In this document: positions 1,163 through 10,036 of the stretch, piece after piece
How the letters are laid out: the number at the start of each line of letters is the position of its first letter
Numbering within the stretch: the first letter of the stretch is position 1
Program-made: the position numbers and the translations under genes
IMG/VR virus record: IMGVR_UViG_3300025042_000034
Span: 1 to 29,247 of that record
Length of the DNA: 29,247 bases
Direction: 5' to 3' (one strand)
From: a virus
Taxonomy: Duplodnaviria > Caudoviricetes
The notes under the pieces: generated by a model
Seen by the model: the letters and a program-made list of their open reading frames with translations, nothing else
What the model was told of the DNA's origin: nothing
Databases searched by the model: none

Positions 1163-1624
1163 TCACCTTGGAGGCATTAGATCCTCGCCTTGCCAGGTAT
1201 CGTTGCCAGGATCTGGATCCAGATATGCCTGAGTCCTTGATGCTAAATCTCGTAGACGTGTGGTAAATAAAAGGTTTAGTTCTGCAGGCAAGGGCTCCCC
1301 GTCGATCGGCATGACAATCCCATGATCGATATGTGCGTGCCCATCAAAGTCCTCAGGTGCATCTTCAAGTTCGCTTCCAGCCTTGCGTATATCCATGGCG
1401 AGAATCGCGCCGAGTCCTGAATAAATTACGTTTCCCGAAACTTGCGATCTAATTTGTTCGCGACATGTTTCCACTCCATGTGGCCTGGCAACAGAAATTA
1501 TCGAACTTCCCTTAGGAGGTCGAAATGCTGCTGGTTTTAATCTTTTCTTCTTTAAATCGTAATGCACTGGTGTTTTTAAGGCCCGAACTATCACTTCTGA
1601 GTCTTCAATTAAAGCGCGTTCCAT
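1163..1624 (-). CDS. Hypothetical protein, putative ADP-ribosyltransferase-fold toxin
   Basis: 153 aa; pattern VIVR...AFRP...ISVAR...G.I.A.DIR..G...P...HAHI resembles small ART-fold toxins (inference); last gene of an AT-rich operon. Confidence 0.55.
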   Translation of the reverse strand: MERALIEDSEVIVRALKTPVHYDLKKKRLKPAAFRPPKGSSIISVARPHGVETCREQIRSQVSGNVIYSGLGAILAMDIRKAGSELEDAPEDFDGHAHIDHGIVMPIDGEPLPAELNLLFTTRLRDLASRTQAYLDPDPGNDTWQGEDLMPPR

Positions 1625-1635
1625 GCGTATATCGC

Positions 1636-2205
1636 TTAAGCAGCAATACGAGAAATGCTCGCATTGCTCATGGTTGGTGATCGGTTAGATTGAGGATACA
1701 AATGATCGTTAACAAAATTACCCATTAAGTGGAAGTCAGCTTGGTTACAATACCCATCCATTATGAATTTATGCTGAGATTCCTTAAGAAGATAAAAAGA
1801 AAACTTTTTTTCACCTATTTCAAGGTGGCTCACGCCCGAGGATGTTTCCCACTCGAATGACACAGTACCGTTAGGATTAGGCGTAATCTCAGGGGCTGGA
1901 GCAATATTTAAAAGGCCGCGTATAGCGCCTAAGCTGTTTTCTATCGTTGAGCTTTGAAATGCGGGAGCACCGTATCCGTCCCAGTCATCGGGCATTTCAG
2001 CTAAGGCGTATACATTGTCGTATGCAAATTTACTTTCGTAAACAGGTATATGCTTAGTAGGAGTTCGTGCAAACTTTCGAGCGTTAATTTCTCGTTTTGG
2101 TACTTCGCCCTTATTAAGCAAGTTTGTTATATGATTAGAAAAATATGAATATATTTCAATGTTAGAGGCTGTGATGTTGCTAAGAGAGGGATAGTTAGTC
2201 ATCAA
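1636..2205 (-). CDS. Hypothetical protein with WDGYGA motif (candidate antitoxin)
   Basis: 189 aa; start overlaps the 3' end of the upstream gene; C-terminal globular-looking domain PDDWDGYGAP...PEITPNPNGTVSFEW; ends in IAA. Confidence 0.7.
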   Translation of the reverse strand: MMTNYPSLSNITASNIEIYSYFSNHITNLLNKGEVPKREINARKFARTPTKHIPVYESKFAYDNVYALAEMPDDWDGYGAPAFQSSTIENSLGAIRGLLNIAPAPEITPNPNGTVSFEWETSSGVSHLEIGEKKFSFYLLKESQHKFIMDGYCNQADFHLMGNFVNDHLYPQSNRSPTMSNASISRIAA

Positions 2206-3001
2206 TTGGCTCCAGTCGATCAGCTATATTTACAATCATGCTTTGGAATATTTTATTCTGAACTTTTTGAGCTAGTTTCAGTGTTGCAAGAATCGAGTTA
2301 ATGTCTGGTGCAATAGGGCTTGCGGCTTGAATGTTAGTATGGACTACAACAGCGCTGCTACCGTTGGCCGATCCTTCGCCTACTGATAATGATAACAGCA
2401 AGCCATCTCGTATAGGTGTGTTCAATTGGAAGTTGTATTTTATAGGATGGCCAGGCTCTTTTAATTCTTCTAGCGCGTCAGGCGTAGATAATACAAACCC
2501 TAGGTCATTCTTAATAAATTCTGAAGGGGACGCACCTCTAACCACTGATTCGTTAAAAGCATCTATATATTGCAAGGAAATATTACTAAATGGCGTTTGT
2601 TGTTCATTCTCTGGACGAGAGGATAAAAGCATCGATATGCCTTCCTTCAGAAATGGAGTAAAGGCTGACCATGAGTCGTAAGGAGGAACCGCATTAGCAG
2701 TGAAAACTCCCGGACCAAGCTGGTAAAGCTCTGCTGCATTTGGAGAGCGCCTTAGACGGTGCGCCACTTGCCCCCCCATTAGAGGAAAGCCGCTTGGTAT
2801 CAGTCTTTCGCTGTGAACACCGCCATTTTGACCTAGCTTTTCATTAAATCGCGAAAGAAGCTTTTCAAACGAGCTAGAGTCGAATATAGGAAACTGTGCT
2901 GGGATACCTGTTGGAGCGCCTGCGAATGGTGAATCACTGCCAGAGTTCCAATGAAGCTCTACGATGACTTCTACAAGAGGAGCGTTTCTATAACGGGTCA
3001 T
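2195..3001 (-). CDS. TIGR04255-family-like protein
   Basis: 268 aa; N-terminal YRNAPLVEVIVEL, central PPYDSW..F and ISLQYID motifs match my recollection of this family. Confidence 0.75.
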   Translation of the reverse strand: MTRYRNAPLVEVIVELHWNSGSDSPFAGAPTGIPAQFPIFDSSSFEKLLSRFNEKLGQNGGVHSERLIPSGFPLMGGQVAHRLRRSPNAAELYQLGPGVFTANAVPPYDSWSAFTPFLKEGISMLLSSRPENEQQTPFSNISLQYIDAFNESVVRGASPSEFIKNDLGFVLSTPDALEELKEPGHPIKYNFQLNTPIRDGLLLSLSVGEGSANGSSAVVVHTNIQAASPIAPDINSILATLKLAQKVQNKIFQSMIVNIADRLEPIDD

Positions 3002-3129: not shown

Positions 3130-3408
3130 TCAGCTTGCACGCTGGTATCTTCCATGAAGCTTGTTATGTTCAGTCATCGCTATGGCCCGTTGGTTGTCCA
3201 GGTATGTGGCCAAGTCCTGCAAATGTACGCCTCGTGCTGACTTCTGGCTGCTTTCTAACCTCACAATAGGCAAATCTATCTCTGTCGACATCACCTTGCG
3301 CTGCAGCTTCTCTACGCTTAAGTGGCTGAAATAATCGGCGCAGACCTTGGGCAGCGGAATCACTACCTGGCCGTCATACTGTGCCATGAGCAGAAATAGG
3401 GTATTCAT
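3130..3408 (-). CDS. Pyocin activator PrtN-family DNA-binding protein (possible excisionase)
   Basis: MNTLFLLMAQYDGQVVIPL...SQKSARGVHLQDLATYLD; SD GAGGA precedes ATG at 3408; last gene of the left operon, near int. Confidence 0.85.
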   Translation of the reverse strand: MNTLFLLMAQYDGQVVIPLPKVCADYFSHLSVEKLQRKVMSTEIDLPIVRLESSQKSARGVHLQDLATYLDNQRAIAMTEHNKLHGRYQRAS

Positions 3409-4455: not shown

Positions 4456-4659
4456 TCAGACCTCCCGTGCGCAGCTGATGCGCATGAGCTGGGTGTCGAT
4501 GGCCAGCATTTGGTTGCGCAGGTTGTCGATGGTTTTTAGCTGCCGTTCGCGTGCGGCTTCGCCTTTGGCTGGGGTGCGTAGCAGTAAGGCGATGTTGGAG
4601 GCGTGGGCGCTGTGTTGGGCTTTGAGGTCGCGTTCGTGCGCGAGGGGTGCGGTGGTCAT
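4456..4659 (-). CDS. Hypothetical protein
   Basis: 67 aa; ATGA overlap with upstream gene; fills the operon. Confidence 0.7.
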   Translation of the reverse strand: MTTAPLAHERDLKAQHSAHASNIALLLRTPAKGEAARERQLKTIDNLRNQMLAIDTQLMRISCAREV

Positions 4660-5204
4660 GGTTTGCGCACCTCAATGTTGACGCCTTCACTGTGCAGCGG
4701 GTGGGCTGGGGTGTAGATATCTGCCCCTACTAATTGGGAATCAAATTGCTGGCGGAATATAGCGTCAACGATGCGGTGGCCGCTGCTGCTGAGGTTTTTG
4801 GCCTCACGTGCGTCTTTATGCTGGTTGGTGGCGTGCAAGGCTGCTGCGCTGAGGTTGAGTTTGTCTGCCATCCGCTGGAGTTTTTGCAGGTCTGAAGCGC
4901 TTATGGTGAGGCCGCTGGCTTTTGCTGCGGTCAGCTCTTCGTCGTGACGTTGCTGTTGTAGCTCCATCGCTAGTGCGGCGTGGCTGCGTTCTGCGCTGAT
5001 GCGTTGGTTGAGGCCGCGTACGGTACTGCACAGGTCTGCATTGGCGGCGCGCAGTTCTGTGAGCAGGCGTTCTTCAACTGCTTGGCGTACGCGATAGCCG
5101 GCTTGCTTGCCTTTGTGCCAGGCGCAGCGGGTGGCGGTGATGGCGATAATCACCAGTGCTGGAATGATGAAGCACCCGGCGATTAGAAGTTGTTGGTTGT
5201 TCAT
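4656..5204 (-). CDS. Membrane-anchored coiled-coil hypothetical protein
   Basis: Start MNNQQLLIAGCFIIPALVIIAITA (one TM segment) after SD GGGAG; helical coiled-coil-like body. Confidence 0.75.
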   Translation of the reverse strand: MNNQQLLIAGCFIIPALVIIAITATRCAWHKGKQAGYRVRQAVEERLLTELRAANADLCSTVRGLNQRISAERSHAALAMELQQQRHDEELTAAKASGLTISASDLQKLQRMADKLNLSAAALHATNQHKDAREAKNLSSSGHRIVDAIFRQQFDSQLVGADIYTPAHPLHSEGVNIEVRKP

Positions 5205-5277
5205 TGGCTGTGTCTCCCGTGCCCGGCGCCGCGTACGTGGTAGGTGCGGCGCCGGGCTGGCTGGTTGTTGTTGGTGG

Positions 5278-6099
5278 TTAGTTGCCGATGGCGAAGGTGC
5301 CCACGGTGAGCTGGCACAGGCCGCCAATCTCGGCGGTGAGTTTGTCTTTAAACTCCTGGGCCATTTCTTCCTCTTGTTGCTCCTGCATCACCCAGCGCAG
5401 TTTGATGGTTGGCGGTTCGCTGGTAAGGATGCTGATGCGCAGGGTGAAGGTGCGCTCTTCCAGTCCGTCATAGGGCGGGGTGGTGAACAGCAGATCGGCT
5501 GGCTGCTTCTCTGCGTGGGCGGCTTCGATGTTGTCCATGCTGCTGCGCTGCGCGCCGAAGTTAGTTTCGGTGCTAGTGCGCTCAGCCTGCGCCTTGATGG
5601 TGATGGTGCGGATTTTTTGCACGGCGGCAGAGACGGGCATTTCAGTGTCGGTGCTGTCCAGTACCTTTATGAAGTGGTGCCAGTCTTCCATCCATTCGGC
5701 CAGATCGGCTTGCTTGTGAGTACGGCCTGTCATTTGCTGAATAGCTTTGAAGGCGGCGGTGGGTTTGAGCTTGAGTGATGCTTTGTCGTCGCCGTGGCCT
5801 GGCAGGTTCTGGTCGCCGAGGTTGAAGAGGACCGTGCAGCTCATGTCGTCCTGATCAACGAAGCCCTGAGGCAGCGCTTCTGTTTTCTGGTGCTGCTCTA
5901 CATAGGCGCAGAAGTCGCGGAACGACTGAGTGGCCAGACGCCCACGGAAGCGTGCGCGGTAAGCCTGGAGCAGCTCTAGCGATTCCACGCTGAACTGGTG
6001 CGGCAGCAAAATGGCGGGCGTGTTGGTGTCCAACGGTTTGCCGTTGGCTGCGGTATGGGTGGCCGTGATGCGGTCCAGGGTATCGAGTGGCAATGTCAT
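5278..6099 (-). CDS. DUF2303 / YfdQ-family phage protein
   Basis: 273 aa; RFRG...FNLG....PGHGD...QADLAEWMEDW motifs; SD AAGGA. Confidence 0.85.
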   Translation of the reverse strand: MTLPLDTLDRITATHTAANGKPLDTNTPAILLPHQFSVESLELLQAYRARFRGRLATQSFRDFCAYVEQHQKTEALPQGFVDQDDMSCTVLFNLGDQNLPGHGDDKASLKLKPTAAFKAIQQMTGRTHKQADLAEWMEDWHHFIKVLDSTDTEMPVSAAVQKIRTITIKAQAERTSTETNFGAQRSSMDNIEAAHAEKQPADLLFTTPPYDGLEERTFTLRISILTSEPPTIKLRWVMQEQQEEEMAQEFKDKLTAEIGGLCQLTVGTFAIGN

Positions 6100-6141
6100 G
6101 TTGCTTTCCTTGTGGTAGGTGGTTTGGTGTTGCGGTGGTGC

Positions 6142-6511: not shown

Positions 6512-6760
6512 TCAAGCGGCTTGGCTTTGCTCGAGCTGGGCATCCAGATAGCGGGCCAGCTCTTGCAGGGTGACTATTTGAGGTGCGCGCTGTGACTTGT
6601 GCAGCTGCGTGAGGGTGATGCTGACGGCACCTTCGTCTATGAGGCGCAGCAGGTGCCGGTCGGTTTGGATATGCGGGAAGCACTCGGCGCGCAGCTCTGC
6701 CAACGTGAGGTAGGGCAGGGTGTAGCGGCGGCGCAGCTGCGCGAGGGTGGCGTTGCTCAT
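6512..6760 (-). CDS. Second PrtN-like DNA-binding protein
   Basis: Start MSNATLAQL with ATGA overlap; SQRAPQIVTLQELARYLD parallels SQKSARGVHLQDLATYLD of 3130-3408. Confidence 0.75.
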   Translation of the reverse strand: MSNATLAQLRRRYTLPYLTLAELRAECFPHIQTDRHLLRLIDEGAVSITLTQLHKSQRAPQIVTLQELARYLDAQLEQSQAA

Positions 6761-7155
6761 GCGGCGGGCACCTCTGCAATGGCTAAGGCGGTGTTGCGTA
6801 CGCGCAACAGCTCGACCAGCCCTTGCGGGGTGTGCGCCATTACCTGTTGCTCTACTAGGGTGCCGTTGAGAATGACGGCGACCAGTTCGGTGCCGTCTGC
6901 GCCCGCGGGCGCTACGCACACCGTGAGGTGCTTGGGTAGCTGGGCGCTGACGGCGGCGTAGGCTTCTGCGAGGCGTACGTGCTGCGGTTGAATCAGGCGC
7001 AGGCGGTCTATTACTTCGTTGACCGTGTCGCTGGCGACCTCTTTGCTGATGGTGGTGGGGTGGTCAAAGTGAACCTGCATCAGCTTGAGCACGCCAATGG
7101 CTTGATCAATGATCGGCATGGGGTTGTAGGGTGTGAATTTTGGCTGGTTCATCAC
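6757..7155 (-). CDS. Hypothetical phage protein
   Basis: 132 aa; translationally coupled at both ends; SD AGGAG. Confidence 0.75.
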   Translation of the reverse strand: MMNQPKFTPYNPMPIIDQAIGVLKLMQVHFDHPTTISKEVASDTVNEVIDRLRLIQPQHVRLAEAYAAVSAQLPKHLTVCVAPAGADGTELVAVILNGTLVEQQVMAHTPQGLVELLRVRNTALAIAEVPAA

Positions 7156-7454
7156 GCGGCGTGCTCCTGCGTTGAAGGCACTTGCACTACCTCTACGCCT
7201 AGCTCTTTGGCGAGCCAGAGCAGCCCTTTACTGGTGACGAAGGTTTTGGCGTAGATAACGCCGTTGCCGTTGTTCATCAGCTTGTTGCCGGTGTGCTCGC
7301 GAAGCTGAACGTGAAAGCGCCCGGCGTCTACATCGCTCTGACGTGGCAGGCGGTTGCAGTCCAGTATCTTGCGGCGCTTGAGCTCGGCGATTAGGCGGTT
7401 GCGACCAGTGCTGAGCATTTTGGCGGCGGTGGCCAGGTCGTATTTATGCGGCAT
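7152..7454 (-). CDS. Stand-alone phage antirepressor KilA-C (ANT) domain protein
   Basis: AAKMLSTGRNRLIAELK...LPRQ...GRFHV...KTFVTSKGLLWL is the ANT/KilA-C signature. Confidence 0.85.
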   Translation of the reverse strand: MPHKYDLATAAKMLSTGRNRLIAELKRRKILDCNRLPRQSDVDAGRFHVQLREHTGNKLMNNGNGVIYAKTFVTSKGLLWLAKELGVEVVQVPSTQEHAA

Positions 7455-7683: not shown

Positions 7684-7973
7684 GCCGCCACCTTCGCCGT
7701 GTCTAGCGTGCCGTTGGCGCAGGCCTCAATCCATTCAGCCACCCGGTGTGCAAGCGTCTCAGCTGGCTGTTTGGGCAGGGTGAGTGTGTTGTGGGTGCCC
7801 TCGGCACGAAAGCTGAGGCGGATATGGTCCGGCAGCTGCGTTATGTGCAGGGTGGCGTGTATGGGCTGCGGCCGAAACGGTGCGCTGATGTTGATCAGCT
7901 TCAGTCTGAAGCAACCCGGTAGGCGCACTTGGGTGTGCAGCAGTTGCTGGGTGACGGCAGTCAGCTGGATCAT
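7680..7973 (-). CDS. Hypothetical phage protein
   Basis: 97 aa; ATGA overlaps at both ends; SD GGAG. Confidence 0.75.
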   Translation of the reverse strand: MIQLTAVTQQLLHTQVRLPGCFRLKLINISAPFRPQPIHATLHITQLPDHIRLSFRAEGTHNTLTLPKQPAETLAHRVAEWIEACANGTLDTAKVAA

Positions 7974-8164
7974 GCGGCGTCATCTCCGGTCCAGGGGCCT
8001 GTGGGCTCTGGGGTGGGAGTTGCGCGCATGGCTGCGCCGCTGCGGTTGCCACCGATGATGATGGCTAGGCCGGTGCGGGCGGTTATGGCTTTTATGTGGT
8101 CTGGATTACTGGCTGCAGTTGGGTGCAGGTAAATCCGGCAGGTAGTACTTGGCTGTGTCCGCAT
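7970..8164 (-). CDS. Small hypothetical protein, first gene of the leftward operon (position of lambda N)
   Basis: 64 aa; directly downstream of the PL-like promoter; coupled to the next gene. Confidence 0.7.
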   Translation of the reverse strand: MRTQPSTTCRIYLHPTAASNPDHIKAITARTGLAIIIGGNRSGAAMRATPTPEPTGPWTGDDAA

Positions 8165-8199
8165 TGTGTTGACCCTGTGTGGTAGGTGGGTTCAACACA

Positions 8200-8241
8200 A
8201 AAATAGCTCAGCTAATTATTTAAGGCAATAGTCCAGCTAAT
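8200..8241 (-). promoter_or_regulatory. PL-like promoter with two repressor operators
   Basis: Minus strand TTGCCT (8228-8223) -17- TATTTT (8205-8200); operators AATAG-N5-CTAAT at 8202-8216 and 8227-8241. Confidence 0.75.
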
Positions 8242-8256
8242 AAATACTTAATATTT

Positions 8257-8994
8257 TTATAGCTCGACTATTTTTCTCTTAGCTTTGCCACAAATTGACC
8301 ACTCTTCGGTCAGCTTGATGATGCGGTCGGGAAAATCTGGGTTGGTTGCTTCCAGATAGAAAACTCCGCCCTCACGACGCAAACGTTTGAGCGTTACGCT
8401 CTGATCGCTGGTGCGTTTGGCGAGCACGATATCGCCGGGGAGGGCTTCGAGTTCGGGATCTATGACTACCCGGTCGCCGGGGTATATGTCTGGCACCATG
8501 CTTGTGCCCTCTACCTTGAGTACGAATGCCCGATTGCTCACTGGGCCTCCTGAGTGAATCCATTCGTCTGCGTCGCCTGGTTGAAAGTTATCAACGGCTT
8601 CGCAAAAAGAGCCAGCTTGAACTTCACCAATCACAGGCAGCATGCGGCCTGCGGTCGGCATGGAGACTACGTTGTCTGATACCAGGTGATCTGCAGAAGG
8701 TTCTTGTATGCGCTGGTTGAGCAGCTTGGCCAACCGTGGGCTGACCTCTTCAGGTAGAAAGTCGAGCGCTTTCGCTAGCTTTAGCAGGGCTTCGATGTTG
8801 AGTGGCATGCCGCCATTCATGTACTGGCTGACGCTGCCTTGCGAAAGCCATCCGCACTGTTCTGCCACCACGTACTGGTTAAGCGTTTTGTCTGCTGCCT
8901 TACGCGCTTTGTAAATGGCTTTTAGGCGTGCGGATTCCTCGTCAATGATGACGCGGTCGACCTCTGGCGGTTTGTTGGGGTAGTCGTTGCTCAT
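8257..8994 (-). CDS. cI: CI-like repressor (HTH plus S24 autopeptidase)
   Basis: HTH (NQYVVAEQCGWLSQGSVSQY), Ala-Gly cleavage site (VQAG), catalytic Ser (GTSM) and Lys (TLKRL). Confidence 0.95.
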   Translation of the reverse strand: MSNDYPNKPPEVDRVIIDEESARLKAIYKARKAADKTLNQYVVAEQCGWLSQGSVSQYMNGGMPLNIEALLKLAKALDFLPEEVSPRLAKLLNQRIQEPSADHLVSDNVVSMPTAGRMLPVIGEVQAGSFCEAVDNFQPGDADEWIHSGGPVSNRAFVLKVEGTSMVPDIYPGDRVVIDPELEALPGDIVLAKRTSDQSVTLKRLRREGGVFYLEATNPDFPDRIIKLTEEWSICGKAKRKIVEL

Positions 8995-9113: not shown

Positions 9114-9326
9114 ATGAAACTCACCGAAGCAATGCCGCTGAATGAATTTGTGCAGGGACGTAAGCAGGATCAGATTGCCGCCGCGTTGGGTGTTACCCAG
9201 GGCTCGGTTTCTCAGATGATGAACTCTAGCCGTTCAATCTGGGTAAGGGCGCTTCCGGACGGGGGCTACCAAGCTTATGAGGTGCGCCCGATTGGGCGAA
9301 AGCCAGCACAACAGATTGCCGCATAA
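9114..9326 (+). CDS. cro: Cro-like repressor
   Basis: 70 aa, divergent from cI; QDQIAAALGVTQGSVSQM HTH followed by lambda-Cro-like beta region (AYEVRP). Confidence 0.9.
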   Translation: MKLTEAMPLNEFVQGRKQDQIAAALGVTQGSVSQMMNSSRSIWVRALPDGGYQAYEVRPIGRKPAQQIAA

Positions 9327-9355
9327 AACAAACCCTGCTGCTTTGGCGGCAGGGT
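9325..9355 (-). terminator. Intrinsic terminator-like hairpin
   Basis: ACCCTGCTGC/GCGGCAGGGT stem at 9332-9355; TTGTTTT tail on the minus strand. Confidence 0.6.
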
Positions 9356-9487
9356 AGGTGTCAGTGCCAAGGGACCACCTACCACGGAAGACCCTTGACC
9401 CTGACGGGATGATGAGCAGCTACCACACCGCTCATCGCAACAGCCGGCCCCCGACACAGCCAGTGCAGAAGGGGCCGAGCCGCTGTA
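9325..9487 (-). ncRNA. Candidate antisense regulatory RNA (~160 nt, four hairpins)
   Basis: Minus-strand promoter-like TAGCCA (9522-9517) -18- TATGCT (9498-9493); four consecutive stems; the last stem has a T-rich tail only on the minus strand; loops complementary to motifs at left-operon start sites. Confidence 0.5.
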
Positions 9488-9523
9488 GACCAAGCATAAG
9501 CGGTATAACCGCGCCTTGGCTAC

Positions 9524-9546
9524 GGCGTTACAGGGGAATTAACGCC
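9524..9546. promoter_or_regulatory. Palindromic site GGCGTTA-N9-TAACGCC (copy 1)
   Basis: Perfect 7-bp inverted repeat around the SD of the CII-like gene; near-identical copy at 13858-13880. Confidence 0.6.
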
Positions 9547-9547
9547 A

Positions 9548-10036
9548 ATGAGTAGACAACACCTTCTGCCGGACGCTGGACCGGTGCTCGATATCCACCA
9601 GGCCGTTTATGTGGCTGCCCGCGAATGCAGGGGCGGTATGACGGCGTTGGCTGCAACGGTGGTTGTGCCTTACGACACTTTTCAGAAGAAAGTGAGCGTG
9701 GCCAATGCCACCCACCATTTGCTGCTGCATGAGTTTATGGCGGTGGCTGAGGCGGTAGATGATGATCGCATTGATGATGCCTTTGCTCGCGCTCGCGGCA
9801 AGCTACTGTTCAAACCCCAACCGGTACCGGCCACCCGTCAGGCGCTTGAGGCGCTGGGCAAGATGCTGGCTGCTGAGGGTGCGTTTGTTGGCAGCCTGCA
9901 TGAAGGCGTGGCCGACAGTAAGTGGGAGCAGCACGAGGTTGAGAAGCTGGAGCACTGCGCGCATAAGGTGATCAGCGAGATTCTAGGCATCTGCGCGGGT
10001 GCGCGGCAGGCGATGGAGGGCGACAACCATGGCTGA
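9548..10036 (+). CDS. Phage regulatory CII-family protein
   Basis: 162 aa downstream of cro; GGMTALA...TFQKKV.......HHL HTH-like N-terminus and ADSKWEQHEV C-terminus typical of CII-like proteins. Confidence 0.75.
   Translation: MSRQHLLPDAGPVLDIHQAVYVAARECRGGMTALAATVVVPYDTFQKKVSVANATHHLLLHEFMAVAEAVDDDRIDDAFARARGKLLFKPQPVPATRQALEALGKMLAAEGAFVGSLHEGVADSKWEQHEVEKLEHCAHKVISEILGICAGARQAMEGDNHG

Follow-up and report, generated by a model that had tools for sequence, protein, structure and literature searches.

A conserved multi-hairpin element in the cro-cII gap of Pseudomonadaceae phages and its probable function as a trans-acting antisense RNA against the left early operon

The gap between cro and the cII-like gene of the temperate phage analysed here contains a real, conserved element, and comparison with related phages suggests that this element probably gives rise to a trans-acting antisense RNA that blocks translation of the left early operon. 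The original prediction of a minus-strand antisense RNA directed at the left-operon start sites is thereby strongly supported on comparative grounds, namely by covariation, strand bias, the promoter and the joint change of seeds and targets. The window, by which we mean the whole 29,247-nucleotide stretch of DNA analysed, carries the gene set of a temperate phage as judged by Pfam and PHROGs, with an integrase at 1-1116 and a leftward early operon running from 8164 to 3130 that encodes a KilAC-domain antirepressor-like protein (7152-7454, minus strand), two PrtN/excisionase-like proteins and one DUF2303 protein. The switch region consists of a cI repressor gene (HTH_3 and peptidase S24 domains; 8257-8994, minus strand), cro (PF09048; 9114-9326, plus strand) and a CP76-family cII-like gene (PF06892; 9548-10036, plus strand), the last followed by a zinc-finger gene and then primase genes. 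CP76 is presumably the CII family of phage 186, and a PDB profile search with it returned no match of the 186-CII type. The left operon is headed by a promoter candidate (TTGCCT-17-TATTTT, 8200-8228, minus strand), and three repeated operator-like sites at 8200-8272 overlap both this candidate and the end of cI. The two PrtN/excisionase-like genes (3130-3408 and 6512-6760, minus strand) are paralogues within one operon, and the interval between integrase and left operon (1163-3001, minus strand) holds three cargo ORFs of 153, 189 and 268 aa with an apparently lower GC content, which possibly form a defence or toxin-antitoxin moron.

The predicted RNA comprises approximately 162 nt of the minus strand (9325-9486) and lies entirely inside the gap, which extends from the cro stop (9326) to the cII start (9548). 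It folds into four hairpins in a row with no closing stem between the 5' and 3' ends: H1 (9438-9485) carries a loop seed that we call B (9462-9453), H2 (9411-9436) exposes a UGGUA loop core, H3 (9360-9405) carries a second seed, A (9385-9375), and the terminator-like H4 (9325-9355) consists of a hairpin at 9355-9332 and a U-rich tail (seven U in eight) adjoining the cro stop codon, although it is absent from the list of a consensus scanner for terminators. On the minus strand the region 9325-9490 has a minimum free energy of -93.3 kcal/mol (z -6.74) and none of 200 shuffled sequences is equally stable, whereas the plus strand reaches -73.0 kcal/mol (z -4.61), which is a good fold as well. The minus strand contains four, two, two and zero G-U pairs in H1 to H4, respectively, while a C-A mismatch of H4 on this strand becomes U-G on the plus strand, and both the hairpin series behind a promoter-like pair and the opposite strand preference of H4 are thus as originally described. 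A pairing of the H3 loop with the bases right before H4 can be drawn in the window and is not conserved in relatives.

The promoter-like pair (9493-9522, minus strand) consists of a -35 box, TAGCCA, at 9522-9517 and a -10 box, TATGCT, at 9498-9493 separated by 18 bp, and it places the predicted transcription start near 9486. The pair is omitted by the consensus scanner, as it matches the consensus at eight of 12 positions against a cut-off of nine. It is nevertheless found as TAGCCA-17/18-TA(T/C)NCT across relatives although the spacer sequence varies, and its distance to H1 is likewise fixed. Its location just 5' of a cII-type gene, convergent with pR and aimed at cI, is that of pE of phage 186 and pRE of lambda. 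Immediately beyond, one base short of the -35 box, ends a 23-bp inverted repeat (9524-9546) with half-sites near -41 and -57, which is a candidate CII site; it keeps the same register in relatives and is imperfect in several of them. According to the available text of PMC6593788 and PMC8538670, pE of phage 186 has an inverted repeat at -38 and -58 to which CII binds, and CII drives the transcription of cI; the half-sites there are 20 bp apart, against 16 bp here. The ribosome-binding site of cII, on the plus strand, falls within the repeat, which could alternatively form a hairpin across it, and in our analysis we regard CII dependence of the predicted RNA promoter as about an even bet. On the plus strand the promoter region itself (9488-9523) can form a hairpin, its spacer being variable yet self-complementary in most relatives, and this structure may belong to the cro-cII message.

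The complements of the seeds are confined to the left operon. A 10-mer complement of H1 occurs exactly at 8159 and 5214, a 10-mer complement of H3 at 8188, 6121 and 5246, and a 9-mer complement of H2 at 8185 only, with no other copies on the entire minus strand and 0.01-0.05 copies expected for each. The first target (8150-8189, minus strand) has box A at 8189-8179 (-25 to -15, in the loop of a leader hairpin) and box B at 8159-8150 (+6 to +15), on either side of the start of the operon's first gene, which encodes 64 aa (7970-8164, phrog_13491) and heads the coupled block containing the KilAC gene. The second (6112-6123, minus strand) is a box A immediately 5' of the Shine-Dalgarno sequence (SD) of a yfdQ-like gene (5278-6099, DUF2303), and the third (5205-5246, minus strand) combines box A at 5246-5236 with box B at 5214-5205 in the interval between SD and ATG of the gene 4656-5204. 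These sites are situated approximately 1.2-4.3 kb from the predicted RNA, beyond cro and cI and behind a separate promoter candidate. The original claim that the loops are exact complements, in colinear order, of motifs at three start sites holds with respect to exactness for H1 and H3, but the order A then B is seen at two of the three starts, the yfdQ start having box A only, and the H2 match at 8185 overlaps the H3 match and is therefore not a third colinear contact. In an accessibility-aware scan of the left transcript the five A and B boxes rank 1, 2, 3, 4 and 6 (-10.9 to -8.5 kcal/mol), compared with best sites of -6.9 and -7.4 kcal/mol on two control strands, while boxed and unboxed starts could not be told apart by the plain duplex energies of entire hairpin arms. 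The yfdP start in the window is without an exact box (yfdP and yfdQ are named after the annotation of phage PG1). Atlas searches with the first and third target proteins returned no function, and the first, used as a single query, was found in one of 401 class-wide genomes.

That seeds and boxes belong together is best seen among the relatives, which are Pseudomonadaceae prophages and phages. From 145 loci with more than 5 kb of upstream DNA, 50 representatives were chosen, and in the 48 of these with a classified seed the left sense strand holds on average 1.74 own-class complements for A and 2.00 for B against 0.17 and 0.38 complements of other classes, own-class sums that none of 20,000 permutations reaches. 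Seeds and left-operon boxes co-vary as the original prediction had it: where both seed class and first left gene could be assigned, the seed corresponds to the leader box in 37 of 39 relatives, the remaining two being without a class box and none being discordant. The nine seed classes, which are single-base variants, require 14 changes on the CP76 tree, although it should be mentioned that the classes were defined after inspecting the data and that the loci are related. Seed and box differ together in the sister pairs L014/L015, L004/L069 and L076/L131, and module exchange may be behind some of these changes. Furthermore, when five new contigs were retrieved solely by the target pattern, four proved to contain the RNA with the seeds of the window, the miss being L175, where the target pattern matched and the related genes were not found, and in L182 a seed outside the class list still matches its own leader. 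Mismatches between seed and target show no G-U bias after normalising (22 of 759 versus 10 of 199 opportunities); apparent wobble support from the raw counts (50 versus 22) was discarded, since it is a composition effect that is gone once normalised. With regard to expression, the run contigs for one relative, L021, which is not the phage of the window, are low-depth or probably DNA, are without strand or ends, and have no bearing either way.

The boxes are furthermore tied to translation starts. Of exact 7-mer box matches in the left sense strands, 223 of 322 lie at start sites, as compared with 0 of 25 and 1 of 25 on control strands, and the boxed gene families are the first left gene, yfdP, yfdQ and homologues of 4656-5204. 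Box A is found approximately 20-27 or 40-47 nt 5' of the start, and box B either in the interval separating SD from start codon or at positions +5 to +10. When start sites of the window and four annotated phages were divided into free-standing ones (at the head of an operon or preceded by a gap of at least 20 nt) and coupled ones (overlapping or close), a box was present at 18 of 21 free-standing but 0 of 37 coupled starts, a comparison in which the 20-nt cut-off was picked after two of the five phages had been inspected, the phages are related and three window start codons were our own choice. One of the three free-standing starts without a box is that of a Turba gene for which the annotation lacks the true upstream neighbour. 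As far as sequence can tell, this distribution suggests that the RNA addresses places of fresh ribosome loading.

Such pairing could be genuine and still have another outcome, in that the RNA would open leader hairpins and activate some targets, or in that the left leader would pair with loops of the pE transcript and thereby control termination at H4 and establishment transcription of cI. At target 1, box A overlaps the strand of the leader hairpin that pairs with the SD, so that binding of A alone might open the site instead of blocking it and the sign of regulation there depends on box B. The promoter, moreover, points at cI, and several long-form relatives have further A and B hairpins past H4, mostly with their own seed, so that H4 is probably leaky and, by their sequences, probably read through in these phages; a reading of H4 as the strict end of the RNA is not supported by them. 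Box B is, however, mostly located in the SD-start interval or just within the gene, where pairing should block ribosomes, and the occurrence of boxes at four separate start sites fits the mRNA as the target. We therefore consider a different outcome of the pairing rather unlikely, and blocked translation of the left operon remains the preferred reading.

The structure and its strandedness were assessed within a collection of 168 loci with a CP76 gene, of which 141 are distinct and have sufficient upstream DNA. Promoter, B loop and A loop follow each other in this order on the minus strand in 128 of these 141, and the element takes the form of two hairpins, of doubled A hairpins or of the four hairpins of the window. 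In 13 long-form RNAs, 88.6% of the cells are paired and 23 of 47 pairs have two-sided changes, and this covariation beats all 500 shuffles and all slid controls; for 23 short forms the values are 83.6% and 12 of 27 pairs, where both pairing models were derived from the same sequences' own folds and the counts are thus biased in their favour. RNAalifold found no consensus structure in the short-form alignment, for which reason our search model R3 uses sequence only; with 30 candidates per genome evaluated in 151 genomes of the family, it matched seven, several of them loci already in the set by sequence, and this count is neither an estimate of prevalence nor independent support. In the 43 representatives in which a -10 box was found by pattern, the minus strand is the more stable one in 42, and its z is the lower of the two in 36. 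G-U cells outnumber A-C cells on the minus strand by 72 to 16 in one count and by 72 to 27 in another. The UGGUA core of H2 is constant while the A seed changes, and no consistent target of its own was found across relatives, which speaks against H2 as a specificity loop as first suggested.

The relatives also present some peculiarities. In L002, L116 and L125 an extra A-type hairpin is found on the cro side of H4, with a seed, UGGUGAG, that has no match to their own start sites yet is a complement of boxes belonging to other seed classes; it is either a relic or a means of cross-phage targeting. The CP76 proteins of the window and L002 are 93% identical, whereas the cro genes look unrelated in sequence and the flanking seeds and boxes are the same. 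Approximately 9 kb to the left of cII, L139 (1011-1201) and L163 (596-786) have matches to the Rfam RT-15 RNA on the minus strand.

A further possibility is that the boxes are read by protein, that is, that A and B are sense-strand sites of a phage RNA-binding protein, acting in nut-like antitermination or as a translational repressor titrated by copies on the cro-cII message, and that they change together with this protein. The nutR site of lambda does sit in the cro-cII gap, the plus strand folds well and displays the same boxes in loops, and the wobble comparison is not in favour of base pairing. In addition, L124, L132, L136, L139 and L140 have tandem units of a B and an A hairpin between the cII start and the promoter match, and hence seeded hairpins 5' of the promoter. 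Nonetheless, G-U bias and stability point to the minus strand, as do the conserved promoter and its fixed distance from H1, and it is difficult to reconcile protein recognition with at least nine single-base seed classes that switch repeatedly between sister phages. Whereas nut and put sites are sense-strand elements just 3' of each early promoter, the structure here favours the strand antisense to the cro-cII message, and the boxes keep their position relative to start codons and not to promoters, including start codons within the operon, at a distance of 2-3 kb from the promoter. Recognition by protein thus seems quite improbable. That the element should be a matter of chance repeats, a DNA-level element or a small protein gene is highly improbable and largely refuted by covariation and by the joint change of seed and box: hairpins do form easily in GC-rich DNA and two short ORFs overlap the region (9275-9493, minus strand; 9358-9555, plus strand), but only 0.01-0.05 copies are expected per box, the G-U bias is not accounted for, and a coding role is rejected since all reading frames are interrupted by stops in most of ten long-form loci and none stays open across relatives.

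Returning to the antisense RNA, transcription would start near 9486 on the minus strand, the A loop of H3 would form a kissing contact with box A and the B loop of H1 would pair with box B, and the ribosome-binding site would thereby be clamped or covered and initiation blocked. Through polarity the effect would reach coupled genes, the antirepressor-like and excisionase-like ones among them, and since the boxes head translationally coupled blocks, most of the left operon would be silenced by three or four contacts. The expected outcome is a push towards lysogeny: as the promoter occupies the position of a CII-activated establishment promoter, the RNA may act at establishment rather than in the secondary immunity of the lysogen that was first suggested, and it probably favours or stabilises lysogeny alongside CI. 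A need for tight control of the left operon is hinted at by the E. coli cluster containing yfdQ, whose overexpression inhibits initiation of host replication, an effect mainly traced to YfdR (PMC4776307, in its available text).

The closest functional parallels are C4 of P1 and P7, CI of P4 and CA of N15, in which two short exposed seeds likewise face two boxes near the ribosome-binding site of an operon containing an antirepressor (the accessible parts of PMC5320573 and the P1 annotation). In these systems too the seeds vary between phages, and those of N15 and P4 resemble the commonest A seed of the present family. C4 is however a three-way junction with a closing stem and a tetraloop as opposed to consecutive hairpins, and RNase P releases it from a transcript that it shares with its target, where it lies between a1/b1 and a2/b2, whereas the present RNA has its own promoter candidate and distant targets and, unlike C4, matches three or four separate start sites. 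In agreement with the original impression that no described family is involved, Rfam gave no C4 (RF01695) match in the window or 15 related loci and no match of the C4 clan up to E 10 over 9200-9650, while P1, P4 and N15 as positive controls gave C4 matches at 69-79 bits together with isrK or c4-a1b1. From its sequence, the RNA would then work like C4 and CI but is not a member of RF01695.

IsrK and c4-a1b1 (RF01394, RF03163) resemble the present RNA in that their hairpins, which are found in phage leaders, expose short loops, and H2 resembles the second hairpin, the b1 target, of Pseudomonas c4-a1b1 rows in the part of the PMC2864571 supplement available; neither family matches the window or the 15 relatives, and no C4 gene follows the present RNA. 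The Pseudomonas C4 RNAs given in the same source have a b' element that is complementary, over 7-9 nt, to H2 of the window and of long-form relatives, and H2 could be either a relic or a decoy that captures C4 RNAs belonging to other elements. Small phage RNAs that adjust the decision between lysis and lysogeny by base pairing are furthermore known in OOP and aQ of lambda and sar of P22, but according to the accessible text of PMC12197685 these have one phage target each, and OOP and aQ act in cis, OOP on cII mRNA. The present RNA differs from OOP in lying upstream of cII with no overlap and in matching several distant start sites through its loops. The available text on 186 pE mentions no seeded hairpin RNA in its leader (PMC6593788), and the accessible portions of the phage sRNA review PMC12197685 and of bioRxiv 2024.10.31.621285 contain nothing similar. 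We found no published description of this RNA family in searches of the openly accessible literature; the family is thus probably undescribed, its novelty being provisional.

A broader and more tentative proposal, which we regard as possible though doubtful, is that phages of Pseudomonadaceae possess a family-wide RNA arm in which a CII-induced multi-hairpin RNA would silence the whole left operon at each independent entry point. The swappable seeds, of which there are at least nine variants, would in that case form a code apart from CI and its operators, the seed class could set a second immunity group, and non-self loops could hit other phages. If the antisense RNA is borne out, widespread temperate phages of Pseudomonas, including the isolates PG1, vB_PstS-pAN, LPPA56 and Turba, control a whole early operon by a trans-acting, seed-coded RNA, and a layer of RNA would be added to the textbook switch in none other than its classic cro-cII gap. 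The phages would furthermore constitute a natural series of co-evolved seed and target pairs usable for direct swap tests, and superinfection immunity groups may then rest on RNA seeds besides repressors.
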